In this document: positions 1 to 50,545 of the stretch, piece after piece
How the letters are laid out: each line of letters opens with the position of its first letter
Position numbering within the stretch: position 1 is the first letter of the stretch
Origin: Lachnospiraceae bacterium
GTDB taxonomy: Bacteria; Bacillota; Clostridia; Lachnospirales; Lachnospiraceae
Direction of reading: 5' to 3'
Length of the DNA: 64,000 nucleotides
Assembly: GCA_900769175.1 (NCBI GenBank)
Contig: CAAGFP010000108.1
Coordinates: 1,107-65,106, forward strand
Notes under the pieces: model-generated
The model's database searches: none
Told to the model about the DNA's origin: nothing
The model's input: only the letters and a program-made list of their open reading frames with translations
Program-made: the position numbers and the translations under genes

Positions 1-51
1 ATTCAGTTCTTGTTGCTTTAATTCAGCATATGTACTTTCAACAATATTCAC
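1..51 (-). CDS. 5' end of an unknown gene running off the window (begins GTG, 'VNIVESTYAELKQQELN...'). It lies immediately downstream of the MTase and could be the partner of an R-M module, but that is unproven.
   Basis: AGGAGG Shine-Dalgarno at 61-66 sits 9 nt upstream of a GTG at 51-49. The frame stays open to the window edge. Only 17 codons are visible. Confidence 0.25.
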   Translation of the reverse strand, partial: MNIVESTYAELKQQELN

Positions 52-68
52 TTGCGAAACCTCCTGTC

Positions 69-1340
69 TTATTTTTCTAATTGCTCTTTTATTTTATCCG
101 CGATTATTTTTGCCATCATCGGTGGAACTGCATTTCCAACTTGCACAAACTGCGAGGTTCTTGGTCCCTCAAAATAATAACTATCCGGAAATGACTGTAT
201 TCTTGCAGCCTCTCTTACAGTAATAGATCTGTGTTGGTCTATATCCGGGTGAATAAAATAATGTCCATCTTTTGATAAGTGTGCCAATATGGTATGGCAA
301 TAATCCATATCTCCTTCTACAACCTTAAATCTATCAACAAAGGATGTTCTATTCCTATGTGTCTTCAGTTCATCTGGCAAATCATCATATTTCAATCTTT
401 CATGCTTAGCATTCTCAAACCACAAATCGATTGTTCTTTTATATATCTCAATATCTTGGGCTGTATGTGGTCTTGCAATATGGCCTGTCAAAACATCAGA
501 TTTTACTCTGATTTCATTCTCCTTAACATATTTTCTTAGTCTACGCATATCGGACATCGTATGTTCTTCTGCCGATTCACCCGGAGTCAAAGTCGGTAAG
601 TCCTTCAATAAGTCCCAAACTTCGGCATCACTATGGATTGTTTCAAATGATGGATATTCATATCCTGTACCTTTTAACCATCCAACAATAATTACCCTTT
701 TTCGACTCTGTAATACTCCAAAATCATGTGCATTAAGTTCATGATAATCTATCTCATATCCTACCTTACGCATATATTTCTGAAGATTCTTAAATGCCTG
801 TCCTCCACGTGCAGTTTTGATACCTGCTACATTTTCAAATACAAACATTCTTGGTTTATATTTATTCAGAAACTGAACATACATCTTATATAATTCATTT
901 CGTGGATCTTCTTCCATCGGCACAAGCATATGGCTACTTTGTGCTCTTCCAACCAATGAATATGCTTGGCATGGAGGACCTCCTATAATAACATCCACTT
1001 GCTCGATTTCTTTCTCAGCTATAATGGTATCTATGGTTTGAAAAATACCTTTAATGGTTGATTCTGACATTTCTTTATTGATGACTGTCTTTAGCTCTTC
1101 ATCTGGAATCAACTCTAATAATTGCTCTCGAGATATTTCGTTTCTCTCGTATTGATAATAGCTATCTAAGTTGTCATTTTCTTTCAAGTAATAATAGGCA
1201 ATTCTTGTTTCTATTGTCTTTGCCGCATGTTCGTTCATCTCTACATGTGCAATTGGTCTATAACCACTTTGAATGAAACCTTCGGACAGTCCTCCGGCAC
1301 CAGCAAAGAGGTCGATATAGCTTAAACCGTTATCATTCAT
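69..1340 (-). CDS. DNA (cytosine-5)-methyltransferase
   Basis: 423 aa with motif I 'DLFAGAGGLSEGF', the catalytic PCQ motif 'GGPPCQAYS', an 'ENV' motif and a C-terminal 'QVGNAV' motif X. This is the canonical C5-MTase architecture. Confidence 0.9.
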   Translation of the reverse strand: MNDNGLSYIDLFAGAGGLSEGFIQSGYRPIAHVEMNEHAAKTIETRIAYYYLKENDNLDSYYQYERNEISREQLLELIPDEELKTVINKEMSESTIKGIFQTIDTIIAEKEIEQVDVIIGGPPCQAYSLVGRAQSSHMLVPMEEDPRNELYKMYVQFLNKYKPRMFVFENVAGIKTARGGQAFKNLQKYMRKVGYEIDYHELNAHDFGVLQSRKRVIIVGWLKGTGYEYPSFETIHSDAEVWDLLKDLPTLTPGESAEEHTMSDMRRLRKYVKENEIRVKSDVLTGHIARPHTAQDIEIYKRTIDLWFENAKHERLKYDDLPDELKTHRNRTSFVDRFKVVEGDMDYCHTILAHLSKDGHYFIHPDIDQHRSITVREAARIQSFPDSYYFEGPRTSQFVQVGNAVPPMMAKIIADKIKEQLEK

Positions 1341-1380
1341 GGTTATCCTACCTTATCATCTCATATTTGCTGTCCAAAAA

Positions 1381-1656
1381 TCAGGACTCCAAAGATTCCT
1401 CATGGATTTTTTTCTTCACATTTTCTAATTCAGTGAATTCCATGATATCTCCTATATTGCATTCTAATTCTGCACAGATTTTCTCTAAAATTGGCAATGC
1501 CACCATTTCCTCATTAGTCATTCTGGCCATGGTACTGCTGCTAATTTTTACAGTCTTGCACAGTTCACTTTTATTTATTTTTTTATCAATCATTAACTTC
1601 CATAAATTGTTGTATGATACTGCCATAATTTCCTCCGTACTGATATCAAAATACAA
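1381..1656 (-). CDS. small XRE/Cro-type HTH protein (controller C-protein-like) immediately upstream of the methyltransferase
   Basis: 91 aa with an HTH_3-like core ('INKSELCKTVKISSSTMARMTNEE'). It lies 40 bp upstream of the MTase on the same strand, the arrangement typical of C-regulated R-M modules. Confidence 0.65.
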   Translation of the reverse strand: MYFDISTEEIMAVSYNNLWKLMIDKKINKSELCKTVKISSSTMARMTNEEMVALPILEKICAELECNIGDIMEFTELENVKKKIHEESLES

Positions 1657-1945
1657 TTATCCCATCTTATTTCATTATAACCATAGCATCCTCATTTGTA
1701 AAATACTTTATTTGATTTCTCAAATACAAATTACGACTTGTTACACTCTTCATTCGCAATAAAAGGCGCGGTCGTAAGATTACGTAAGGTGTAATTTTAA
1801 ATTCATCATTGAAATTCCGTCTTATCGCACCAGGAGCCTCGCAAAATAACTAATAGAAATGTTTAGTTTCATATGACCTTTTCATAATCTTATATAAAAC
1901 AATTCAGGTGCTACAGCCTATGCCATAGCACCCAAATCATTAACA

Positions 1946-4015
1946 CTATCGACTGTCCCTGTTTCGCACGACTCTCTTCTCTCGCATGCCAGCCTCATAA
2001 ATATGGTCAAACACTTCATACCGCTTCTGCTGATCCATATCAACTCCAAGTCTGTCAATTTCCTTGTTAAACAACTTAATCCCAGCAAAATACTCCATAT
2101 CTCCAAAGTCAAACGCCTCCGATAATATATCTGCCGAATATTCTGTAAGTCTACTCGAATCAATTCCAAGCAGTTCCAGCCTATCTACTATCTGTTCCGT
2201 TTGTACTTGGATAGCAGCTTCCGACTTCTGTTTCTCATAATAATCCGTCAAAAGCTTAGTCTCCTCATAAACAGAATCAAAACCTGTGTCCATACCAATC
2301 TTTTCAAAATAAGTCCTAACCATCTCAAATGCTGCATCTGTTCCCTTGTCATCAAACGGATAACAACGTACTTTTTCAGCTACACTCATTCTCATATAAT
2401 CAGCCTTATCAGATGGTAATCTCACCGTTTCACCATACTCTCGAATATCCTCATTCTGCAAGCCAGGCTCGACACTCACATCCATCATATCAATATCTGT
2501 TTCTACAACGCTTTCAGCATCTGTAATAGCAGTCTTCCCAACAGTTTTAACACCTGTAACAGCAGTCTCTGCAAACGCTTCTGCCTCTGTTTCAAGCTCA
2601 TTATCTACAATCGCTTCAAACTCCGGTTCCGTAATTACATCTGCTTCCACAGCATCATCCAAAGCAGTATTCTCTACTTCCACAACCTCCGGCACTCGAT
2701 AAGGATTTCCGGGCACTTCGTCTTTTTCAACATCTACCAAATCTACCATATCATCAACCGGTATCCGCATTTCCAATTCCGCCTCCATCAGACTCCCATC
2801 CCGCTCAAGGCACCGCTCCACCGCTTTCAACTTCTTTCGATTATCCTTCTTTTGAAGCTTAATCTGCTCCAAACGCTCCCGATAATCACCCTCTGATACT
2901 TCAAAGAATTCCAAATCTTGTGCAGTCTTGCATGACCTTTTCTGTAAAGCCCTGTCCCCGTACATTTCCTTCTGTGCCTTGCACAGTTCCTCATCCACCT
3001 GTTGTAATCTCAGCTTCAAGCGGAACAAATCACCATATGACTTCACATCATACTTGACCAACACCAGATACTCTTCCTGAAGCTCATGCATTTTCCGTAT
3101 CTGCTCATACAGATAAGCAGATTTATAAGTAAACCGCTTTTTCTCAGCCAGCCGCAAACGATACATCCTTGCATAGCACTTTCTCTGGTATGGTGTTAGA
3201 ACAGCTTTTCTTACCGGCAGCAATGAAACAGTTCGATTTACAGGAGATGCAAGACTTGCGTCCCCATATCGAAACATAGCTTCCAGACTCTCTCTGCTCA
3301 AATCCTCCGAAATGGTATCCAGTCTTTTAAACTGCTTCATCTCCGGAACCTTCACAGCGATATGCTTGCCCTGTTTTACTTCAAAGCCCAGCTTCTCCAG
3401 AAGAAATATAAAATGCTCCATATTTTCTGCACTGATGGCACAAAACAAGGCATCCTGCTTGATCCATTTGGAAAATGCCTGCTCACGCTCCCACTGTGGT
3501 CTTGCCATATTCTTCGGTTCCTTGCTGTATTCAGCCGGAGTGATATGCAGTCCGTATTCTTCACAGAGCTTATTGGTAATGGGCTGGAATTTATATTTCC
3601 AGTCACCATCCCGGCACTGAAACTTGTATCCGGTCACCATGTTTACACTGTTTATTATGATGTGGGCATGAAGATGTTCCCTGTCTGTATGGACAGCCAC
3701 CACCGCCTCATATTCACCTGCAAATGCCTCCCCGGCAAACCGCATTGCAATATCATACATAATCTCCGGTGTTCCCTCTCCGGGTTTTAGGGATATTACA
3801 AAATGATATCCTTGCCTTCCGCCGGTTTTGCCAAACATCCGCTTTGTCGCCTTCATCTGTCGGTAAGCCATCTCCGGCAGGCAGTTGATACCGCCTGCCA
3901 GATTTGCCTCCCCAAGCTTTTTCGGTTGTAAAATATAGTTGATGGAATGCTCCAGATGAATGTCTATTCGAGCCTTGCTGCTTGCCTTCATATGCATCAT
4001 CTTGGTTATTGCCAC
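1946..4015 (-). CDS. mobilization relaxase (Relaxase/MobA-MobL nuclease domain, MOBP-like)
   Basis: 689 aa. The N-terminal domain carries the histidine triad 'VHTDREHLHAHIIIN' typical of pfam03432 relaxases. A long coiled-coil / acidic C-terminal half follows. The gene overlaps the upstream MobC gene by 10 nt. Confidence 0.85.
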   Translation of the reverse strand: MAITKMMHMKASSKARIDIHLEHSINYILQPKKLGEANLAGGINCLPEMAYRQMKATKRMFGKTGGRQGYHFVISLKPGEGTPEIMYDIAMRFAGEAFAGEYEAVVAVHTDREHLHAHIIINSVNMVTGYKFQCRDGDWKYKFQPITNKLCEEYGLHITPAEYSKEPKNMARPQWEREQAFSKWIKQDALFCAISAENMEHFIFLLEKLGFEVKQGKHIAVKVPEMKQFKRLDTISEDLSRESLEAMFRYGDASLASPVNRTVSLLPVRKAVLTPYQRKCYARMYRLRLAEKKRFTYKSAYLYEQIRKMHELQEEYLVLVKYDVKSYGDLFRLKLRLQQVDEELCKAQKEMYGDRALQKRSCKTAQDLEFFEVSEGDYRERLEQIKLQKKDNRKKLKAVERCLERDGSLMEAELEMRIPVDDMVDLVDVEKDEVPGNPYRVPEVVEVENTALDDAVEADVITEPEFEAIVDNELETEAEAFAETAVTGVKTVGKTAITDAESVVETDIDMMDVSVEPGLQNEDIREYGETVRLPSDKADYMRMSVAEKVRCYPFDDKGTDAAFEMVRTYFEKIGMDTGFDSVYEETKLLTDYYEKQKSEAAIQVQTEQIVDRLELLGIDSSRLTEYSADILSEAFDFGDMEYFAGIKLFNKEIDRLGVDMDQQKRYEVFDHIYEAGMREKRVVRNRDSR

Positions 4016-4353
4016 CTGTTCACCACCTCCTGTAATAAATCCTTTATCTGCTCAAGCAGATGATTTCCCGTCCGCATGGTGCTGTCAAAGACATAGCCAC
4101 ACCCGTTGGCAGTTCTTGTCATCTGGTTGTAATTGTTGCAAAGACTGGAAATCTGACTGATTAGATTCCGTCTGTCATAAGCAAGCGTTGTATCTACTCT
4201 TCCACCATGAGTAATCAGATATCTTACATAATCCGATAATTTCATGTTGTTGGCTTTGGCATCATACTCTGCCTGCTCCCGTTCCTCATCCGACAAGCGG
4301 ATGGTAAAATTCTTCCTTGGTTCTATCAATTGTCCTCTTCGTCCTATAAGCAA
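4006..4353 (-). CDS. MobC-family relaxosome accessory protein
   Basis: 115 aa with a ribbon-helix-helix-like N-terminus ('KNFTIRLSDEEREQAEYDAKANNMKLSDYVRYLI'). Position directly upstream of the relaxase and overlapping it. This is the typical mobC-mobA arrangement. Confidence 0.7.
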   Translation of the reverse strand: MLIGRRGQLIEPRKNFTIRLSDEEREQAEYDAKANNMKLSDYVRYLITHGGRVDTTLAYDRRNLISQISSLCNNYNQMTRTANGCGYVFDSTMRTGNHLLEQIKDLLQEVVNRWQ

Positions 4354-4439
4354 TCCCTTCTTTCGTTTCTTTCTTTATCCGTCATTGGAAGTTCCCGTAA
4401 GGTACCCTGTTTCCAAAACTTGTGTAGAGAGAATTTGCC

Positions 4440-4645
4440 AGATACGTAAAACGCCATGCGTTTTACAGAATCTGGTTAGGGGGAGCAAAATCCCCCTAAG
4501 ACCCTCTACATATATGCCCCATTCGGGGCAATTATTTGTAATATCAGCTGTACTACTAGCTCCCATCTGTATTACTGTCGGTATTACCATAAAATAACCT
4601 GTATCACACCCGGTATTACTTTTTATAACCTTTGTAATACCCGGT
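4440..4645. other. candidate origin of transfer (oriT) region
   Basis: Intergenic stretch upstream of mobC containing three inverted repeats: 4445-4468 'cgtaaaacgccatgcgttttacag', 4476-4500 'ttagggggagcaaaatccccctaag' and 4515-4530 'tgccccattcggggca'. It also carries an iteron-like 'GGTATTAC' in three direct copies plus one inverted copy (4570-4642). Confidence 0.4.
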
Positions 4646-4676
4646 GTATTAACTTCTTATGACCTACTTGCTACAG

Positions 4677-5123
4677 TTACGTCAAAAACGACATCGCATA
4701 ATCCGCAATATCATCATCCAATATCTCCAAAGACTCTTCAGAAACTTTGAAATTATCTTCACTTTCTCCCAGTGTTGTCTGCGATATCTCATGTGATATT
4801 AGATTATCATTCTGCATTACAGCCAGACCTTTCACTTGCTCCTCGACAATCAGCTTCACTGCATTAATAATCCGGTCTGCTTCTCCAGACATTGCATTCT
4901 GGATTGCCTCTCTCTGGGCATTCAACTCACAAACAAGACGCTTTTCACTCTCATCCTGCTTTATGCCTTGAACCACCCTTATCAACGCACTTTTTATAAA
5001 CTTGCTCTTATCTCCAAAACAGGGTTCTATGGCACCTCCGGTTAAAAAACTCCAGATTTCCATATCCTCTTCCCTGTTCAGGTTGAGACGGAAGCTGACT
5101 GTCACACTGTCACCACGTGCCAT
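4677..5123 (-). CDS. hypothetical protein of the mobile element (148 aa from the RBS-supported start)
   Basis: AAAGGAGG RBS precedes the ATG for 'MARGDSVTVSFRLNLNREED...'. I recognise no motif. The C-terminus is acidic. Confidence 0.4.
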   Translation of the reverse strand: MARGDSVTVSFRLNLNREEDMEIWSFLTGGAIEPCFGDKSKFIKSALIRVVQGIKQDESEKRLVCELNAQREAIQNAMSGEADRIINAVKLIVEEQVKGLAVMQNDNLISHEISQTTLGESEDNFKVSEESLEILDDDIADYAMSFLT

Positions 5124-5252
5124 GCTGCCTCCTTTCCGGTTTCCAAGGTTCATGTGCTTCAGATATCTTTTGATTGCAGCAGCCAAATGCTTTTGCTATA
5201 ATGTATTTGCGAGATACATAGCGAAGCTTTGGCTTTGCAACCAAGTCCTTTC

Positions 5253-5531
5253 CTAATCGGATTGGACTTTTTCTTTTGTCTGATAGCCGCACTTCTCAGC
5301 CACCATGCCGGCTTTCTGTGTCAGGTCATCACCCGGATTGTAGTAATCTGCATATCCGTAAATCTTCTGTTCAAAATATTTACGGGGGCATTTCCCACGC
5401 ATGGTATAGAACCCTCGAGCATCCAGTTCGGCATTGTATGTCTTAATAACTGCGTATGCCTTTGTCATACCAACTCCCAGAATCTGACTGACTTCCTTTG
5501 CATCAATAAATGCTTCCTTTGTTGTTATCAT
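5253..5531 (-). CDS. small DNA-binding protein, excisionase/HTH_17-like (putative Xis or recombination directionality factor)
   Basis: 92 aa. 'KEVSQILGVGMTKAYAVIKTYNAELDARGF' resembles MerR/excisionase-type HTH. It is positioned divergently from the XRE regulator and near the integrase. Confidence 0.45.
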   Translation of the reverse strand: MITTKEAFIDAKEVSQILGVGMTKAYAVIKTYNAELDARGFYTMRGKCPRKYFEQKIYGYADYYNPGDDLTQKAGMVAEKCGYQTKEKVQSD

Positions 5532-5818
5532 ACAGCTCCTCCTTTCTATTAAATTTGTATTACCGATACGAATTTGAAACCTTCTGTTAAATCATTCAAG
5601 TTATAATCCGTATTTTTAGTTCGTGTTTAATCATAATACATCTTTCAAAACATGTCAATGGATTTTTATAAAAATACGCACTTGCAATTCGTATTTGTTC
5701 ATGGTATAGTATTTATAACGTTACAAATCAGTTACTTTTTGGTACGGATTTCTTGGTTTTACGCAAAATACGAATCAAAACAACTGAACAGTAACAGTAA
5801 TAAAAGGAAGGTGATGAT

Positions 5819-6493
5819 ATGGCTTTATCAGATGACCAGCGTTTTGCCATGTATACCGCAGAGGAAATCGGTAATGCAATTAAGAAACGCCGCAGACAGT
5901 TAAAGATAACGCAGAAAGAATTTGCCCAAAGACTTGATAAGTCGGAGCGTACCATTCAAAAATACGAATCCGGCGAAATCACCATGAAGATTGATTTAAT
6001 CAAACAGGTGGCTGATGAACTGGATATTCCGTGGCAGGAGCTTCTGGAAGCAAAGTCTGATAAGATTGGTATCGTATCCGCAGAAGAGGATTTTCCGGCT
6101 TATCGCTTTCATAACCTGTCAGACGTTATCAATGCATTATTTACAATAACGGAGATTAAAGATATTGCATTCCAGCTCTCCTGCACCAAACCCCCGGAAA
6201 ATCCCGAGTGGACTTCAGCCCTCATGGTTGACGGCAAAGGAAGCGGAATCTATAATGCAGACTTCTGTCTCTTTATGGAAAACTGGATGAATAAGCTTGC
6301 TGCTTTACAAAGCGGTTCCATAAGTCAAGAGCAGTTTGATACTTGGAAAAGAGAAACTTTGGAATATTATTCTGACAGCTTCTTCTCTGATTTCAGTTCA
6401 CAGAGAGAAAAGGTAAAAAAGAGCAAAGGAGTAAAGAAGAAACCTGATTATTCAACCATTCAGATTGTTTCTACCAAAGAAGAGGATAACTAA
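5819..6493 (+). CDS. XRE-family transcriptional regulator with an uncharacterised C-terminal domain
   Basis: N-terminal HTH_3 ('IKKRRRQLKITQKEFAQRLDKSERTIQKYESGE'). The ~140-aa C-terminal region has no recognisable motif. RBS 'aaaggaagg' precedes the start. Confidence 0.8.
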   Translation: MALSDDQRFAMYTAEEIGNAIKKRRRQLKITQKEFAQRLDKSERTIQKYESGEITMKIDLIKQVADELDIPWQELLEAKSDKIGIVSAEEDFPAYRFHNLSDVINALFTITEIKDIAFQLSCTKPPENPEWTSALMVDGKGSGIYNADFCLFMENWMNKLAALQSGSISQEQFDTWKRETLEYYSDSFFSDFSSQREKVKKSKGVKKKPDYSTIQIVSTKEEDN

Positions 6494-6672
6494 AATCCTC
6501 AATAATATTTGAAAAAATGTAGATTATATCATAGCCTTTGGAAACATGCACCCAAAACCATAATTTTCAGGTCAGGTGCGATACATACCGCAATCACGCG
6601 GTTCTACTTTAGAACATTATCCGATGCAAGATTTTCGGACAATTCTAAAGATACTTACATTTTACAAAGGAG

Positions 6673-7944
6673 ATGATGTTTATGCCAGCTTACAAAGATA
6701 ACAAGACTGGTAAATGGTTCTGCAAGTTCTACTATACGGACTGGCAGGGCAACAACCGACAAAAGTGGAAACGAGGCTTCGCCACTAAAAAGGAAGCTCT
6801 GACTTATGAAAGGGATTTTCTTGAAAAGCAGTCTGCCAACCCGGATATGACTTTCCAGAATCTCTACGAACTTTATATGGAGGATATGACCGCCCGCTTG
6901 AAGCAGTCAACCATACTGACCAAGAAGCATATTTGTGAAACTCACATCCTGCCTTTCTTTGGCAAGAAGCCAATCAATGAAATCAAGGCTTCCGATGTGA
7001 GAAGATGGCAGAATCAGTTGATGAATTCCCCAAAAGGATATTCAAAAACTTATCTGAAAACCATCAATAATCAGCTCACCTGCATGATTAACTACGCAAA
7101 ACGCTTCTACGATTTAAACACAAATCCCTGTGGTCAAGCAGGAAGCATCGGACAGGCAAAGGCAGAGGAAATGGATTACTGGACTTACGATGAGTATATT
7201 GCTTTTCGTGAGGGCATTAAGGACAAGCCTCTATCCTATATCTGCTTTCAGGTACTGTACTGGACCGGGATGCGTGAAGGGGAGCTTCTGGCTCTTACTG
7301 CTGCTGATATCGACCTTGTTGTAAAACAGATTGATATCAACAAAACTTATCAGCGTCTTCACGGAGAGGATATCATCACCACTCCAAAGACAAGGAAAAG
7401 TAAGAGAAAAGTTCCAATTCCGGATTTTCTGTGTCAGGAACTGCAGGAGTATATGGATTCCCGTTATATGCTTGCTCCAAATGAGAGGCTCTTTCCCATT
7501 ACAAAATCTTTTCTCTCCCACGAGATGGAAAGAGGGTGTAAGGCAACCGGCGTAAAGAGAATCCGTATCCATGACATCCGCCACTCCCACGCAAGCCTCC
7601 TCATCAATCAGGGTTGCGATGCACTTATCCTCGCTGACAGACTTGGACATGAAAAAGTATCCACAACACTGAATACTTACTCCCACCTGTTTCCACACAA
7701 ACAGCAGGAGCTTGTCAGCAATTTGGAACAGCTTGCAGCTACAGTTGGTGTCACACCGACACCGGAGCCTCCAATGGGAAATCCACTGCTTGAAACCATG
7801 GGTATTTCCTATGATGGTGACATGGCAGGTGATTCAGTTACTCCGGATACAGAATATGCCAATAAGGGACTTCCATATGGACCTATGCCAAAAGAAACAG
7901 CATCAGGAAAAGTAATCCCGATGCCTCAAAGAAAAGCTATCTAA
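6673..7944 (+). CDS. int: site-specific tyrosine recombinase / integrase (phage integrase family, Tn916-Int-like with N-terminal arm-binding domain)
   Basis: 423 aa. N-terminus 'YKDNKTGKWFCKFYYTDWQGNNRQKWKRGFATKKEA' is an arm-type DNA-binding domain. The catalytic region carries 'RIHDIRHSHASLLI' and 'LGHEKVSTTLNTYSHL' (the R...HxxR...Y pattern). Confidence 0.9.
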   Translation: MMFMPAYKDNKTGKWFCKFYYTDWQGNNRQKWKRGFATKKEALTYERDFLEKQSANPDMTFQNLYELYMEDMTARLKQSTILTKKHICETHILPFFGKKPINEIKASDVRRWQNQLMNSPKGYSKTYLKTINNQLTCMINYAKRFYDLNTNPCGQAGSIGQAKAEEMDYWTYDEYIAFREGIKDKPLSYICFQVLYWTGMREGELLALTAADIDLVVKQIDINKTYQRLHGEDIITTPKTRKSKRKVPIPDFLCQELQEYMDSRYMLAPNERLFPITKSFLSHEMERGCKATGVKRIRIHDIRHSHASLLINQGCDALILADRLGHEKVSTTLNTYSHLFPHKQQELVSNLEQLAATVGVTPTPEPPMGNPLLETMGISYDGDMAGDSVTPDTEYANKGLPYGPMPKETASGKVIPMPQRKAI

Positions 7945-9651: not shown

Positions 9652-9690
9652 TATTATAAAACTGAATATTTTTCGCTTCAAGTTTTTTCT
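9652..9690 (-). promoter_or_regulatory. putative sigma-A promoter of guaA (-35 TTGAAG, 17-nt spacer, -10 TATAAT; minus-strand sense)
   Basis: The reverse complement reads 'cTTGAAGcgaaaaatattcagtttTATAATatgg', about 55 nt upstream of the guaA ATG. Confidence 0.45.
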
Positions 9691-9812
9691 TTTATTCTTA
9701 TAAAATATTTTGTTTCTTTTCTTCAAATTTTTTCTTTTATCCTAATAAAATAATGTTTCTTTTCTTCAAATTTTTCTTTTATTCCAATAAAATATTTTGT
9801 TTCTTTTCTTAC
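9690..9812. repeat. three tandem ~45-bp AT-rich repeat units between spoIIID and guaA
   Basis: Unit consensus is 'ttcaaRttttttcttttatYcYWataaaataWtttgtttcttttc'. The units are contiguous. Each unit, read in guaA sense, carries a TTTGAA(G) -35-like hexamer. The array ends at the spoIIID stop codon. Confidence 0.7.
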
Positions 9813-10139: not shown

Positions 10140-10260
10140 TAAAATATTCCTATCGCGCGAGTGCGCATCCTTCGCGGAGCGTTTGTTATGTAATAGAAAA
10201 TTCGGGGGAATTTCCTATTACATAACAAAACACGGCAAAGAAACATTCTTTGCCGTGTAA
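10140..10260. repeat. intergenic composite of terminator hairpin (10231-10257), a second 11-bp-arm hairpin (10186-10228) and GC-rich 'box A' motif (10146-10166)
   Basis: 'cgcgcgagtgcgcatccttcgcggagc' recurs at 22988 and 43133. 'cacggcaaagaaacattctttgccgtg' is a classic terminator downstream of the preceding gene. Confidence 0.6.
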
Positions 10261-21302: not shown

Positions 21303-22961
21303 ATGGAGCAATACATAGAGCCGGAAAAATCATACCCCAGTCAAAACAGTCAATATACTGCAGCGAAATCGCAATATGCGAAAGCTTCGAATCCACAACC
21401 AAAGTCTGCCTGTCTTGAACTAAAAAAGGAATTTGTCCATATGCTAAACAGTGAATCCAGTGCAGGAAGCGAAACGGTTTTGGAAAAGGATTTCATTCTT
21501 CCGGATTCTGCCGAAGATATGGTAAGGATTCTGTTAATAGATCCTCTTGTATGCACAGAGGAAGCAACCGCGGGTGAAAACCGCATGGAATTCAAAGGAA
21601 ACTTACAGGTAAACTTCCTTTATCAGTCAGACATTAATCCGAATGCACTTTGCAGACAGCAATTTAAAATTCCCTTCCGTGAAGTCGTAAAACTTGACGG
21701 GCTTAACGCCGCCGACAAGCCGGAATGGGAAATCAATGTCGATAAATTCTCACTTTTACGGGTGAACGAGCGAAAGGCCGTATTTAAAGGCACTCTTGAG
21801 TTTTCCTGTGTGTTAGGCCAGATTCGGGACGAAGAAATCGTAACCGGAATTGTTTCGGACGAAGAATGTGAAATCCGGACAGAACAATATCAATGCCTGT
21901 CCTTAAGCGGAATGAAAAATGATTTATTCCGCATCCGTGAGGAAATGAAGCTTCCCGCCAGCGCACCTGCCGTTTCTTCCATTATCTGGCAGTCGCTTTC
22001 AATCCGGAATTTTGAAGCAAAGCCTCTGCGCGAGCAGCTTGCAATCCGCGGAGAGCTCAATGCGTTTATTATTTACACGGATGAAACCGAGCAGACCTAT
22101 TTCAAAGAATCCACGATTCCTTTCCACGGAACCTTGGAATGTGACGGCTGTGATGAAGATTCCATCGTAAACGTTTCCTATTCCATTGACAAACAGCTTT
22201 GCGAAATCCGCCCGGACGATGAAGGCGAAGACAGAAATATCAGTTTGGAAGTCAACCTCAAACTCTATATCAAAGTATTTGAAAATATGCGTACCGACTG
22301 CATGAGCGATGCCTATGCCGGAAAGAGCGAACTGATTCTTGACAAAAAAGAAATATCCTGTTTTGAATTTCTGACAAATTCCATGGAAAGTTTTCGCATT
22401 GACCAGATGGTTCCCGTTCCGTCCGAAAATGAGAGAATCGATGAAATTCTGCATGCTTCTTTCGACATTGAAATTACCTCTGTCAGCCGCGACCAAAATA
22501 ATCTGTTAACAAGAGGAAACCTTTGCGTGCAGCTCTTCTTTACTGTCACAGATGACCGTTTTCCTTACCGCAGCAGTACTTTCAAAGTTCCGTTCACGCA
22601 CAGCAGTGGCATTTCCGGTCTGAGTCCGGATACGGAATACCGGATTCAGGGAACGCCGGAAAACATTTCCGTTACCGTATTCGATACGGAGAATCTTCAA
22701 TTCAAGGCCGTGGTGATGCTTAATATTTTTGCAATGAATAAAATCAATCACACGAGCGTCAGCTGTGTGACTTCCATTCCGAATTCTTCTGAAAAACGAA
22801 AGAAAAGTTACGGCATTACCGTCTTCTTCCCGGATAAAAACAATAATACATTATGGGAGGTCGGAAAAGAAACCGGAATTCCCTTATCGAGAATCCGTTC
22901 CTTAAATCATTTAAGTCCTGACGCAGAAACTTATAAAGATAAAATCATCGTGATGAAATAA
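21303..22961 (+). CDS. DUF3794-like repeat protein with C-terminal LysM-like domain (SipL-like, possible spore morphogenesis protein)
   Basis: 552 aa. The C-terminal 45 aa ('ITVFFPDKNNNTLWEVGKETGIPLSRIRSLNHLSPDAETYKDKIIV') fits the LysM pattern. The architecture resembles Clostridial SipL. The assignment is tentative. Confidence 0.4.
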   Translation: MEQYIEPEKSYPSQNSQYTAAKSQYAKASNPQPKSACLELKKEFVHMLNSESSAGSETVLEKDFILPDSAEDMVRILLIDPLVCTEEATAGENRMEFKGNLQVNFLYQSDINPNALCRQQFKIPFREVVKLDGLNAADKPEWEINVDKFSLLRVNERKAVFKGTLEFSCVLGQIRDEEIVTGIVSDEECEIRTEQYQCLSLSGMKNDLFRIREEMKLPASAPAVSSIIWQSLSIRNFEAKPLREQLAIRGELNAFIIYTDETEQTYFKESTIPFHGTLECDGCDEDSIVNVSYSIDKQLCEIRPDDEGEDRNISLEVNLKLYIKVFENMRTDCMSDAYAGKSELILDKKEISCFEFLTNSMESFRIDQMVPVPSENERIDEILHASFDIEITSVSRDQNNLLTRGNLCVQLFFTVTDDRFPYRSSTFKVPFTHSSGISGLSPDTEYRIQGTPENISVTVFDTENLQFKAVVMLNIFAMNKINHTSVSCVTSIPNSSEKRKKSYGITVFFPDKNNNTLWEVGKETGIPLSRIRSLNHLSPDAETYKDKIIVMK

Positions 22962-23078
22962 CGCGCGTACGCAAGCAACTATCTTCTTTACGCGCGCATG
23001 CGCATCCTGCGCGGAGCAAAGAATCTCGCAAGCGAGATTCTTTGCTCCGGTTGCGTGTTGTGTAAGCAACTTTCTACT
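22961..23078. repeat. composite copy of the dispersed GC-rich intergenic repeat family (modules A and B plus a 17-bp-arm hairpin)
   Basis: Contains 'acgcaagcaactatcttcttt', 'acgcgcgcatgcgcatcctgcgcggagc' (box A), the perfect hairpin 'cggagcaaagaatctcgc-aag-gcgagattctttgctccg', and 'gttgcgtgttgtgtaagcaactttctacttt' (box B). Confidence 0.65.
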
Positions 23079-23984
23079 TTATTTCACACATCCGATTAAT
23101 TCATGAATATCTTCAATTCGGTGTTTTTTCATATAACCTTCTATTCCGTCTATCACAGCAAGAGTCGCATAGGGATTTACAAAATTCATTGCGCCGACGG
23201 AAACCGCAGCTGCACCTGCCATAATAAATTCAAGCGCATCTTCTCCCGTTGCGATTCCGCCCATTCCGATAATGGGAATCTGCACGGCATTCGCACACTG
23301 GTAAACCATACGTACGGCAACCGGTTTGATGGCAGGGCCGGATAATCCACCCGTTTTGTTGGCAAGAAGGAAGGTTCTTTTTTCTACATCGATTTTCATA
23401 CCGGTAATCGTATTGATCAGCGAAATGGCATCAGCCCCCGCTGCTTCTGCAGCCTTTGCCATTTCTGTAATATCCGTTACGTTCGGGCTTAACTTCATAA
23501 TGACCGGCTGTTTTGCCACTGCTTTGATTCGTTTCGTAATATCAAAGAGCGCGTCTGCTTTCTGTCCAAACGCAATAGCACCTTCTTTTACATTCGGACA
23601 GGATACATTGATTTCGAGCATTTTAACAATTTGACTGTCGCCGAGGCGTTCAACCGTTTCAAGATAATCCTCCACCGTTTTCCCGCATACATTGACAATG
23701 ACATTCGTTTCATAGTTTTTCAAAAACTCCAGATCCCGTTCCATAAACACATCGATTCCCGGATTCTGCAAACCGATGGCGTTTAACATTCCGCCATAGG
23801 TTTCTGCAACTCTCGGCGTCGGATTTCCCGGCCAGGGCACATTTGCAACACCCTTTGTCACAATTCCGCCAAGCGCATTTAAATCAACAAAATTACTGTA
23901 TTCCATACCGGAACCAAAGGTTCCCGAAGCAGTCATAACGGGATTTTTAAATTTAACTCCTGCAATGGTAACTTCCGTATTCAT
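23079..23984 (-). CDS. pyrD: dihydroorotate dehydrogenase (class 1B) catalytic subunit
   Basis: 'IAGVKFKNPVMTASGTFG' N-terminus. 301 aa. Overlaps pyrK (ATGA). Confidence 0.9.
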   Translation of the reverse strand: MNTEVTIAGVKFKNPVMTASGTFGSGMEYSNFVDLNALGGIVTKGVANVPWPGNPTPRVAETYGGMLNAIGLQNPGIDVFMERDLEFLKNYETNVIVNVCGKTVEDYLETVERLGDSQIVKMLEINVSCPNVKEGAIAFGQKADALFDITKRIKAVAKQPVIMKLSPNVTDITEMAKAAEAAGADAISLINTITGMKIDVEKRTFLLANKTGGLSGPAIKPVAVRMVYQCANAVQIPIIGMGGIATGEDALEFIMAGAAAVSVGAMNFVNPYATLAVIDGIEGYMKKHRIEDIHELIGCVK

Positions 23985-43127: not shown

Positions 43128-43250
43128 TTCGACGCGCGTGCACATCCTTCGCGGAGCATTTTTTTCATCATCGGAAATACAAAAGAATTTTCGATGATGA
43201 AAAAAACACCCAGAAATATTATAATCTGAGTGTTTTTTTTCGTCAATTGT
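43128..43250. repeat. intergenic composite of terminator hairpin, a second 15-bp-arm hairpin and GC-rich 'box A' (43133-43158)
   Basis: 'cgcgcgtgcacatccttcgcggagc', then 'ttcatcatcggaaat...attttcgatgatgaa', then 'acacccagaaatattataatctgagtgt' plus a T8 run. Confidence 0.6.
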
Positions 43251-43342
43251 ATTTCTCCCGGTACAATGATATACCAGTTCTTTCATTCGTAAGCAACTCT
43301 TCTGATGCGAGAATATCATCCCCTGAAAAAGTACTTCTTCTG

Positions 43343-49452: not shown

Positions 49453-49616
49453 TTGTATGACCATCCTTTCTTTTTTCAACGTGATTATAGCAAGACAGTA
49501 TGGGGATTGCAAGAAAAAACAACGCAAAAAAACAACGCAAGATTCTGACTTTTTTTATTTTTTTCTAGCAGATTTCAAAAAGCTTTGCTACAATAAAGAA
49601 AGACATAGAAGATAGA

Positions 49617-49690
49617 ACAAAGAATCCCGCTTGCGAGATTCTTCGCGCCGAGTGCGTGTTGCGTAAGCAACTTTCTTCTTTTCTCGCAAG
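49617..49690. repeat. upstream copy of a ~75-bp direct repeat flanking the AraC gene (hairpin + box B)
   Basis: 'aagaatcccgcttgcgagattcttcgcgccgagtgcgtgttgcgtaagcaactttcttcttttctcgcaag'. Confidence 0.7.
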
Positions 49691-49718: not shown

Positions 49719-50459
49719 ATGAAACCAAAGAAAACGAATTACACTCCACCGGAACGGCTTCAGGTGGATCACGGCTCATACGAAAGAGAAATGAGTTTCT
49801 ATGACGCAGTTAAAACCGGCGACATGAAATATGTGGAAGCCCGCATAAAGGAGATAGACGCAACACCGTCCACCCAGCAGGAGCGCGGCAAGCTCTCCGA
49901 AGACCCGGTAAGAAATGCCATGTATCATTTCATCATCGCCACCGCAATTATTGCAAGAGTCTGTATTGAAGGCGGTATGGAGCACGATTTAGCCTATTCC
50001 ATGAGTGATTATTATATCCAAAAGGGTGATTTATGCAAAACCATAGATGATATCACTGCTCTTCGCAACAGAATGGTGTTCGATTATTGCAAGAAAATGA
50101 AACAGCAGACCACAGCGGAAATCTATTCCAAACAAGTGGTGCTGGCAATTGATTACATTTACGAAAATCTTGAAAAGCCCATAAGCGTAAAAGGAATTGC
50201 GGACAGCATCGGCATCAATGAAACCTATCTGTCCAAGCTGTTCAAGCGCGAAACCGGCATTTCCGTTAGTGCATACATTCGCCAGCGTCGTATCGAAACC
50301 GCCGAAAAAATGTTGCTGTATTCTGATTTGTCGTACGACGAAATTGCAGAAACACTCTGTTTTTCATCCCAGAGCCATTTTACGAAAGTATTCAAAGAAG
50401 TCACCGGCACAACACCAAAGGTATATCGCGACCGGAATTTCAGAAAAAACTTTTTATAA
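49719..50459 (+). CDS. AraC-family transcriptional regulator
   Basis: The C-terminal AraC HTH reads 'AYIRQRRIETAEKMLLYSDLSYDEIAETLCFSSQSHFTKVFKEVTGTTPKVYR'. Start set at MKPKK, with a GGAGAAAAAT RBS. The longer ORF begins inside the repeat. Confidence 0.85.
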   Translation: MKPKKTNYTPPERLQVDHGSYEREMSFYDAVKTGDMKYVEARIKEIDATPSTQQERGKLSEDPVRNAMYHFIIATAIIARVCIEGGMEHDLAYSMSDYYIQKGDLCKTIDDITALRNRMVFDYCKKMKQQTTAEIYSKQVVLAIDYIYENLEKPISVKGIADSIGINETYLSKLFKRETGISVSAYIRQRRIETAEKMLLYSDLSYDEIAETLCFSSQSHFTKVFKEVTGTTPKVYRDRNFRKNFL

Positions 50460-50467
50460 AATTAAAA

Positions 50468-50545
50468 AAGAATGTGCCTTGGCACATTCTCGCGCCGAGC
50501 GCATGTTGCGTAAGCAACTTTCTTCTTTTTGCGCGAGCGCGCAAT
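50468..50545. repeat. downstream copy of the ~75-bp direct repeat flanking the AraC gene (hairpin + box B); its hairpin also serves as the acpP terminator
   Basis: 'aagaatgtgccttggcacattctcgcgccgagcgcatgttgcgtaagcaactttcttctttttgcgcgagcgcgc'. Confidence 0.7.

Follow-up and report, generated by a model that had tools for sequence, protein, structure and literature searches.

What kind of sequence separates the sipL-like gene from pyrD in this Lachnospiraceae genome, and how did its parts come together? The two convergent genes lie within a 64,000-nt stretch of DNA, here called the window, and their stop codons bound a spacer of 117 nt at 22962-23078. As had been predicted from the sequence, the spacer is nearly all repeat-derived, with repeats beyond chance expectation, and the strings given in that prediction for a degenerate box B, a box A and a second box B are all present. 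The locus comprises the following features:

21303-22961, + strand, SipL-domain (sipL-like) gene, with its stop codon at the left edge of the spacer
22962-23017, + strand, unit 1, a partial element, from the match of model R1, the fold and comparison with canonical copies
22969-22989, degenerate box B (acgcaagcaactatcttcttt), in the spacer
22991-23017, box A (CGCGCGCATGCGCATCCTGCGCGGAGC), in the spacer
23012-23049, strandless, perfect 17-bp hairpin with loop CAAG, from the sequence and from RNA and DNA folds
23018-23080, + strand, unit 2, a partial element, from repeat families D4/D7 and a box B match with 2 mismatches
23050-23080, second box B (gttgcgtgttgtgtaagcaactttctacttt), in the spacer
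23079-23984, - strand, pyrD, with its stop codon at the right edge of the spacer

The proposed link to the sites near 10146/43133 and 49617/50468 is real. Box A recurs at the first two (10154-10180 and 43131-43157) and box B at the other two (49643-49690 and 50490-50537), all on the + strand. With up to three mismatches, box A has 2 matches in the window and box B has 3, against 0.00 expected for each; the box A core, with up to two mismatches, has 3 against 0.09 expected. Model R1 detects all five window sites, each on the + strand, and every one of the five copies is truncated. Outside the spacer, the copies and one probable fragment are:

10146-10260, + strand, copy c1, from repeat families I9, D6 and D8 and model R1
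43131-43245, + strand, copy c3, from repeats, the box A core scan and model R1
43283-43312, + strand, probable extra box B fragment TTCGTAAGCAACTCTTCTGATGCGAG, in the spacer between a histidine kinase gene and focA, read by eye
49615-49690, + strand, copy c4, from repeats, the box B scan and model R1
50465-50545, + strand, copy c5, from repeats, the box B scan and model R1

The plan to which these pieces belong was obtained from an alignment of 23 full copies from ~17 genomes. The structure was set by hand, because MAFFT and RNAalifold gave a poor consensus for the first alignment, and was refitted with a covariance model. The intact element measures ~150-180 nt and has the fixed order hp0, B, A, hp1 on the window + strand. 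Its left start is A-rich, (G)AACAAAG or AAAAAG, and its right end is the ..AAAAA end of hp1. While hp0 is a variable hairpin and hp1 a long AT-based one, the centre of the element is occupied by a long hairpin with bulges, where box B gives the 5' strands S1, P2 and P3, and box A gives the P2 3' strand and the conserved word TGCGCATCCTKCGCGGAGC. Boxes B and A occur together in all 23 full copies, one of each and always in this order. The original prediction of a composite element is correct to the extent that A and B lie in one element, and the modules do co-occur elsewhere; the spacer itself is not an intact example, and its arrangement, B'-A-hairpin-B, is non-canonical.

Covariation in the 23 copies supports the modelled helices hp0, P2 and P3, where both partners of 23 of 23 pairs change. 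Covariation scores 0.553, compared with 0.187 after shuffling; none of 500 shuffles reaches 0.553, and slid controls attain 0.16 at most. Helix P2 is formed by B on one strand and A on the other, so the two boxes are halves of a single fold rather than independent units. A possible closing helix P1, in which S1 would pair with TGCGCA, has one compensatory case, and an alternative pairing of S1 with TKCGCG found no support. The word TGCGCA is invariant and palindromic, and TTCC/GGAA words recur. Box A served as the search key, which inflates its conservation, and one variant (L135) is without most of it. Wobble counts (17 G.T and 19 A.C cells across helices) give no strand assignment, nor does the folding energy, which is equal on both strands. 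The constraint therefore looks to be at the DNA level rather than the RNA level, and we count it as evidence for the explanation preferred below. No Rfam family reaches its gathering threshold at the window elements or at 18 loci, where matches below threshold are generic hairpins of the miRNA type. The family is an ordinary kind of intergenic repeat, itself apparently undescribed: we found no description of it in the literature, and in what we found the conserved word is printed nowhere.

Each window copy retains a different part of this plan. In c1, loop J, the P2 3' strand and box A (10146-10180) precede hp1 (10182-10229) and a native terminator hairpin (10231-10259); this copy has lost its 5' half, and its position is unchanged in 10 same-species contigs. 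The 5' half is also gone from c3, which has the box A variant TGCACATCC, hp1 (43158-43206) and a bidirectional terminator. Copy c4, between divergent OmpA-family and AraC-family genes, consists of GAACAAAG, hp0 and B, is degenerate beyond the P2 3' strand and lacks box A and hp1. Directly 3' of the AraC stop codon, c5 has hp0, B, the P2 3' strand and the start of box A, CGCGCAAT, with the remainder lost. The probable B fragment includes an exact GTAAGCAACT at 43289; model R1 gives no match there.

Within the spacer, unit 1 begins with the P2 5' strand CGCGCGT (22962-22968), followed by a remnant of the P3 3' arm with loop J (ACGCAAGCAACTATCTTCTTT, 22969-22989), the P2 3' strand ACGCGCG (22990-22996) and the box A core TGCGCATCCTGCGCGGAGC (22999-23017). 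Relative to canonical copies it lacks hp0, S1, the P3 5' arm and hp1, and R1 matches it over 22929-23017 (48.1 bits, E = 1.5e-11). The first box B was rightly recognised in this unit, but is missing the ~8-nt 5' arm of the small hairpin GTTGC-GTAA-GCAAC. Unit 2 comprises hp0, an S1/P2 5' equivalent (TGCTCCGGTTGCG), the P3 hairpin GTTGT-GTAA-GCAAC at 23057-23070 and loop J TTTCTACTTT, and ends at the pyrD stop codon (23079-23081). The hairpin, cggagcaaagaatctcg-caag-cgagattctttgctccg, has arms at 23012-23028 and 23033-23049 and a 4-nt loop. Its 17-bp arms are perfect, as predicted, but the string quoted for it had one g too many, and the loop is CAAG. It is the hp0 of unit 2 (AAAGAATCTCGC..GCGAGATTCTTT) extended outward by CGGAGC-GCTCCG pairing, in which GCTCCG is the mutated S1 of unit 2. 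CGGAGC, the outer part of the 5' arm, is also the last 6 nt of box A, so that box A and the hairpin overlap. Homologues of the hp0 core lie in the copy at 49615-49650 (I1/D7) and at loci L033 and L101. Folded as RNA, the whole spacer beats shuffles by a wide margin on both strands (z = -5.5 and -5.7), and the hairpin alone, folded as DNA, has -20.5 kcal/mol (z = -7.7). Units 1 (B' + A) and 2 (hp0 + B) meet at GAGC/GAAC, a junction of box A with AAAG that occurs in 0 of ~30 other copies.

We consider it probable that the spacer is a decayed tandem scar, in which two truncated copies of an interspersed, hairpin-rich Lachnospiraceae DNA repeat are fused head to tail. The element would be a putative non-autonomous mobile or selfish DNA of the MITE or REP-like kind that settles at terminator T-tracts, with copies homogenised by inter-copy recombination and decaying through internal deletions. 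At 22962-23078, a second unit may have landed directly after the hp0 of the first, because hp0 and its T-run would mimic the preferred target. Later loss of hp1 and the outer parts, by deletion or rearrangement, would have joined B'-A to hp0-B through the GAGC/GAAC microhomology. That this copy arose in tandem is a reconstruction. The extended 17-bp hairpin is the sole strong structure between sipL and pyrD, and most likely acts as a putative joint transcription stop or insulator of the two genes; selection, or template-switch repair inside the palindrome, may have kept it perfect. The tail after it reads GGTTGCGTGTTGTGT (+ strand) or CGCGCAGGATGC (- strand), is partly U-rich on the sipL strand and has no U-tract on the pyrD strand, and a terminator consensus scan listed none at this hairpin.

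The repeat is multi-copy, homogeneous within a genome and strongly orientation-biased, and places hp1 against a copy-specific terminator hairpin. Scanning the genome collection for box A returned ~31 low-GC matches. Lachnospiraceae or Clostridia MAGs account for nearly all of them; two, in Bacteroidia and Chitinophagia, are coincidences within coding sequence, and nearly all element matches are flanked by hp0 and a B-like half before box A and by hp1 after it. Many box A matches in high-GC genomes, Selenomonas, Paenibacillus and Oscillospiraceae were also coding-sequence coincidences and were discarded, some of which appear to encode an LRILRGAG-type motif. Model R1 gave 50 matches in total, including truncated and palindromic ones, and recovered the full copies. 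The box A scan of viral contigs had zero matches. An exact scan for box B GTTGYGTAAGCAACTTTCTNCTT had zero matches in genome_contigs and metagenome_contigs, and this variant is therefore confined to the source species or close kin. One Agathobacter MAG has at least 13 loci and CAMFDJ01 at least 5, and no copy in either has terminal inverted repeats. Copies sit at unrelated loci; the element is 0.88-0.94 identical within a genome and 0.50-0.64 between genomes, with flanks at 0.27-0.39. The family breaks short-read Lachnospiraceae MAG assemblies, because contigs end inside its copies. One other tandem pair was seen, on a plasmid next to mob genes, where a full unit is directly followed by a short-form unit (L162) at a junction that differs from that of the spacer.

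Strains differ in ways that indicate turnover, in line with the suggestion that such differences would be evidence of mobility. The spacer hairpin reads GGTGC/GCACC in other strains against GGAGC/GCTCC here, a compensatory change from A-T to T-A. Among strains, c5 (the 50468 copy) has two hp0 alleles, and hp0 in general exists as discrete types common to several genomes. In another species, the hp0+B half is deleted in L157 and L159 relative to L156 and L160, with a junction of the type found in L119. The same-species contigs were anchored on PyrK and GuaA, because the exact PyrD protein had no record match. In relatives whose PyrD is 87-90% identical, neither pyrD nor sipL has an element nearby, and the gene order there differs. 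Between htpG and PAP2, the spacer measures 202 nt with the element (L079) and 67 nt in a related Agathobacter species, where there is no recognisable element but a faint hp0-like word; this comparison is between species ~75% identical in protein, and suggests absence while leaving the junction undefined. A search via the PAP2 neighbour yielded no clean pair of empty and filled sites among near-identical strains.

The element strand has negative GC skew at 29 of 32 loci, and likewise at 5 of 5 window sites. The gene on the right flank faces the element in 19 of 22 cases, a count in which gene orientation is confounded with replication direction. In ~22 of 28 copies, a hairpin preceded by at least six A begins within 0-3 nt after hp1, and this abutting terminator hairpin is specific to the copy. 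On the majority gene strand, the order is gene, terminator stem, the element from the T-run onwards, and finally hp0 with a T-rich tail. That tail, on the gene-sense (window -) strand, is TTTGTTC or TTTTTT. On the same strand, a start codon follows many copies at a distance of 20-60 nt, and one copy (L122) lies between a T-box and tyrS, an awkward position if hp0 and its T-tail terminate efficiently. The downstream genes, named from their translations, include YigZ, GerA, DapA, TyrS, ThrS, PotA, TrmD, PurC, ZupT, Fe-ADH and a permease; they have no common functional theme, and no conserved promoter was found at the copies.

These positions bear on a reading that we consider unlikely, in which the element is a functional RNA made from the gene-sense strand, either a multi-copy sRNA gene or a mobile cis-acting leader or attenuator. 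Here hp1 would form the 5' side, the bulged hairpin a structured core, and hp0 with its U-tract the RNA's own terminator, and the spacer would be a broken pair of such genes. The strong covariation of three helices, the conserved unpaired words, the T-rich tract after hp0 and the placement of copies ahead of start codons, once between T-box and tyrS, all fit an RNA, as does a C.A mismatch of hp0 in c4 and in allele 2 of c5 that becomes a G.U pair on the gene-sense strand. However, G.U is not in excess over A.C (17 vs 19) and the strands fold equally well, the functions downstream are unrelated, and neither a conserved promoter nor an Rfam match was found. Copies are near-identical within a genome and diverged between genomes, and truncated halves and internal deletions are frequent and polymorphic. 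The spacer itself has no hp1, and the tail of its hp0 is buried in a stem.

Less likely again is an array of DNA sites that a host protein or recombinase binds and that the host keeps for its own benefit, with a role in nucleoid organisation, site-specific recombination or signalling oriented by replication. Such an array would account for a constraint that appears symmetric and at the DNA level, for the very strong skew of orientation relative to GC skew, and for the invariant palindrome TGCGCA and recurring TTCC/GGAA words. Against this, copies decay freely into halves in the source species, and relatives have no copies at the same loci. Sequence types also vary between genomes while the stems covary, which is unexpected for a protein-binding consensus, and we know of no partner protein for the element.

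The original prediction compared the boxes with the modules of pneumococcal BOX elements. We hold free recombination of such modules, with the spacer as one legitimate combination, to be improbable, further down the scale than a site array. Different subsets do occur in the window (A + hp1; hp0 + B; B' + A + hp0 + B), hp0 varies between strains at one locus, and its discrete types are common to several genomes. Yet truncation from either end (5' or 3') and one recurrent internal deletion account for the subsets, the order is invariant in the 23 full copies, B is tied to A by compensatory changes in P2, no module varies in copy number, and the A-to-hp0 junction of the spacer is unique among ~30 copies. 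The analogy to BOX-like modularity fails on these grounds and on the lack of terminal inverted repeats. BOX elements (boxA - boxB(n) - boxC) are small, non-coding, highly base-paired and intergenic, and occur in a Firmicute (PMC3049150). They share with the Lachnospiraceae element a composite look, strain variation and a tendency to follow the coding bias of the genome (PMC3049150). BOX has inverted repeats at its termini, and its boxB units vary in number and fold on their own, apart from A and C, whereas in the Lachnospiraceae element the order is fixed, nothing is reiterated, the termini are not inverted, and A and B form one helix. The host families differ as well, and it is architecture, rather than sequence comparison, that sets the two apart.

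That the spacer is an ordinary bidirectional terminator whose likeness to the other sites is coincidental is barely credible and counts as refuted, since convergent genes and a strong hairpin would suit one but the repeat matches are far beyond chance (R1 E-value above), homologous hp0 + B sequences occur in other genomes, and a canonical U-tract is absent. Riboswitch, small peptide, attC, group II intron fragment, omega-RNA and CRISPR readings were dropped because there was no Rfam hit, conserved ORF or gene theme; for a riboswitch or specific cis-regulatory leader, there was no coherent downstream gene set.

Several known repeats resemble the element in part. Co-option as a terminator has been suggested for SPRITE (PMC3049150). 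Like the element, it has a long stem followed by a T-rich tract and is enriched just 3' of genes in a co-oriented manner (PMC3049150). SPRITE is essentially a single 18-bp duplex with a U-rich tract, whereas the element folds into three hairpin domains, their bulges conserved, and lies directly against a distinct terminator hairpin that varies between copies. REP/BIME sequences are likewise structured extragenic palindromes at gene ends and mosaics of units; they affect the 3' ends and stability of transcripts, and are thought to be spread, with an orientation bias, by a single-strand (HUH) transposase. REP units are 20-40 nt with a conserved GTAG head, in contrast to the 150-180 nt, conserved internal word and absence of a GTAG head in the element. 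The element resembles MITEs in being small, non-coding and present in many dispersed, near-identical copies, but has none of their terminal inverted repeats.

The features of IS200/IS605-derived (PATE-type) elements offer a further comparison. Shared with them are subterminal hairpins at both ends (here hp0 and hp1), a lack of terminal inverted repeats, orientation beside a short motif (here the T-run) and no evident target duplication, which in the element is not visible because both ends lie in A/T runs. No Y1 transposase, cleavage or guide motifs or autonomous parent were identified for the element, and we know of no counterpart of the large central bulged hairpin in IS200/IS605-derived elements. 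Robart, Seo and Zimmerly (2007) reportedly found that class C group II introns sit right after intrinsic terminator stems in the terminator orientation, a placement that the element shares; the element is far too small to be one, has no ribozyme domains or ORF and has no Rfam intron match.

A broader proposal for the family is a tentative one, possible but rather unlikely. It might be a class of terminator-homing, strand-specific, non-autonomous DNA elements spread via single-stranded DNA by an HUH-type or hairpin-recognising enzyme, with the conserved word and the bulged hairpin as recognition or cleavage core, or else a mobile RNA module by which termination and read-through between genes are rewired across Lachnospiraceae. 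If the terminator placement and strict orientation reflect the mechanism of insertion, abundant gut bacteria would provide, in this family, a tractable case of mobile DNA targeted to terminators, and if the Agathobacter and Roseburia MAGs are representative, its range would take in dominant human-gut butyrate producers. The spacer should be annotated as repeat-derived rather than as a gene or regulatory RNA, and the family marks sites of rearrangement and inter-copy recombination. A covariance model of the family would be simple to make and useful. Copies could also influence read-through into neighbouring genes, including the T-box-controlled tyrS.

The target spacer (22962-23078, 117 nt) is bounded by the stop codons of a SipL-domain gene and pyrD. 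It opens with CGCGCGT and a truncated form of box B (ACGCAAGCAACTATCTTCTTT); box A (ACGCGCGCA-TGCGCATCCTGCGCGGAGC), a hairpin and a second box B (GTTGCGTGTTGTGTAAGCAACTTTCTACTTT) follow in that order, the last extending into the pyrD stop codon. The original prediction described these parts accurately, except that its hairpin string has one g too many. The spacer is far more structured than shuffled versions of itself on both strands, and its matches to other sites in the window lie far above chance expectation; the underlying observation is real. A covariance-model search at full sensitivity placed five element sites on the + strand of the window and none on the - strand.

Features of the window (c1 to c5 are element copies matched by the covariance model)
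69-1340, DNA methylase in the block at 1-7944
1946-4015, relaxase in the block at 1-7944
6673-7944, integrase in the block at 1-7944
10146-10260, + strand, c1, box A and long hairpin
21303-22961, + strand, SipL-domain sporulation gene
22962-23080, + strand, c2, the target
23012-23049, perfect hairpin, arms of 17 bp, loop CAAG
23079-23984, - strand, pyrD
43131-43245, + strand, c3, box A and long hairpin
49615-49690, + strand, c4, hairpin and box B
50465-50545, + strand, c5, hairpin, box B and the start of box A

The order of parts shows that boxes B and A are the 5' and 3' halves of one bulged hairpin. The proposal that the two belong to one composite element was right. Read along the window + strand, a unit comprises (G)AACAAAG, hp0 (a short variable hairpin), S1 (CGCGC), the 5' strand of P2, the P3 hairpin, loop J ((A)TTTCCTAT), the 3' strand of P2, TGCGCATCC, TKCGCG, GAGC and hp1, a long AT-based hairpin with the layout TTTTT..ATAGGAAA..loop..TTTCCTAT..AAAAA. 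After the covariance model was built, 23 full copies from ~17 genomes were refitted, and changes on both sides were observed at 23/23 pairs of hp0, P2 and P3. The covariation score was 0.553 versus 0.187 for shuffled alignments, with 0/500 shuffles reaching 0.553 and slid controls at or below 0.16. Neither wobble counts (17 G.T versus 19 A.C) nor folding energies favour a strand, a neutrality more in keeping with a palindrome constraint acting on the DNA than with an RNA gene. At L033, L102, L125 and other loci outside the window, loop J has the same sequence as the inner 3' arm of hp1 and complements the 5' arm of that hairpin; at L102, loop and arm co-vary (CTTCCTCT / GAGAGGAA). This likeness may point to a pseudoknot, to alternative base-pairing or to a protein-binding site.

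Set against this architecture, the target is best read as two trimmed units rather than the intact chimeric copy first proposed, and its junction occurs in 0 of ~30 other copies. Unit 1 (22962-23017) retains P2 (CGCGCGT/ACGCGCG), part of P3, loop J and box A, and has lost hp0, S1 and hp1. Unit 2 (23018-23080) retains hp0 and the B half together with loop J, and breaks off at the pyrD stop codon. At the join, GAGC from the end of box A stands in place of the GAAC that starts a unit; in unit 2, S1 has changed from CGCGC to TGCTC, making hp0 six pairs longer so that it reaches into the end of box A. We infer that the target once held two tandem units, and that deletions and local rearrangement later trimmed both. 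Tandem landing would be favoured because hp0 with its T-run mimics the preferred landing site of the family. SipL and PyrD have normal ends, so the genes themselves are unaffected. The hairpin is the sole strong structure between these convergent genes, and is thus likely a transcription stop or insulator, albeit one lacking a canonical U-tract.

A scan with box A returned ~31 low-GC matches. Two of these (L026 and L071) are coding-sequence coincidences, as are the matches in high-GC genomes; the other low-GC matches come from Lachnospiraceae or Clostridia MAGs and isolates, with hosts including Agathobacter, Roseburia, Butyrivibrio and Eubacterium. Nearly all real matches have hp0 and a B-like segment before box A and hp1 after it. 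The box B variant of the window had no match in genome or metagenome collections. A variant element in a sister species (L135 2482-2555, - strand; PyrD 90% identical) has hp0, P2 and P3 with a GTAA loop resembling the box B of the window, and runs through TGCGTATG directly into a T-run without most of box A, showing that the family is wider than the box A search reveals.

Copies that share a genome have 88-94% identity but unrelated flanks, element cores from different genomes are just 50-64% identical, and short-read contigs repeatedly end inside copies. Placement is strongly oriented: GC skew on the element strand is negative at 29/32 loci, as in the window, and the hp1-side gene is directed at the element in 19/22 cases. 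In ~22/28 copies, a distinct copy-specific hairpin preceded by an A-run lies 0-3 nt after hp1, giving the gene-sense order of gene, native terminator stem and element starting with a T-run. On that strand the element ends in hp0 followed by TTTGTTC or TTTTTT. Genes downstream of copies have no functional relation to one another. They include tyrS, where, in the region L122 5698-6136, a full element lies between a T-box leader (5861-6136, - strand, Rfam match) and the start codon on the same strand; at L125, a T-box-like sequence lies past the element, upstream of a thrS-looking gene. On the 225-kb plasmid NZ_CP119189.1 (52640-52850, L162 3000-3200; recorded source Clostridium perfringens, goat faeces), a full unit and, immediately after it, a short-form unit lie beside MobC and relaxase genes; in the short form, the hp0 5' arm is fused to CGCATCC..GAGC and hp1.

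The positions of c1, c2, c4 and c5 are kept in all same-species contigs found for them, c3 falling outside the comparison. Other strains differ in the target hairpin by a compensatory exchange of A-T for T-A, which accounts for the sole two differences in 160 nt. Copies c4 and c5 are direct partial copies (hp0 and B), 847 nt apart, that flank an AraC-family gene (49719-50459), itself present in every strain found. The downstream copy, c5, has two very different hp0 alleles, and the resemblance of one to hp0 of the neighbouring copy indicates conversion between copies. At one locus of another species, sampled across metagenomes, L156/L160 carry the hp0 and B half and L157/L159 lack exactly this half, with the deletion junction AAAGTG|TGCGCATCC, also given as AAAAAGTG|TGCGCATCC. 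The same junction type in the Agathobacter copy L119 suggests recurrent structure-mediated deletion. The htpG-PAP2 spacer measures 67 nt in a related Agathobacter species versus 202 nt with the element in L079. In relatives with PyrD identity of 87-90%, gene order near pyrD and sipL differs and no element lies near either gene.

The family behaves as known interspersed structured repeats do. Its closest counterpart in habit is pneumococcal SPRITE, with a looser resemblance to BOX (PMC3049150), REP/BIME and IS200/IS605-derived elements. With neither inverted termini nor a reiterated module, the element falls outside the definitions of BOX and of classical MITEs, and the proposed analogy with BOX fails. 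No Rfam family matched it on either strand, and we found no paper printing its conserved word; the family appears to be undescribed, yet of a familiar kind.

Several other repeats and insertions were observed. A probable sixth fragment, the B-like TTCGTAAGCAACTCTTCTGATGCGAG at 43283-43312, shares the spacer of the 43131 copy, ~80 nt beyond it. In a related Lachnospiraceae (L137 10903-11167), a long inverted repeat lies in the pyrD-GNAT spacer, its arms (GTGTGCCGCGTGGAAAC ... GTTTCCACGCGGCAC) flanking ~200 nt; it has no relation to the A/B element. A 45-nt AT-rich unit is repeated 3.1 times with 87% matches at window 9676-9810, between the position of a SpoIIID gene called in same-species contigs and the guaA start. 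Lastly, the integrative, mobilisable block at 1-7944 adjoins guaA, after which same-species contigs carry differing cargo (a type I restriction system or other integrases), marking the guaA 3' side as an insertion hotspot.
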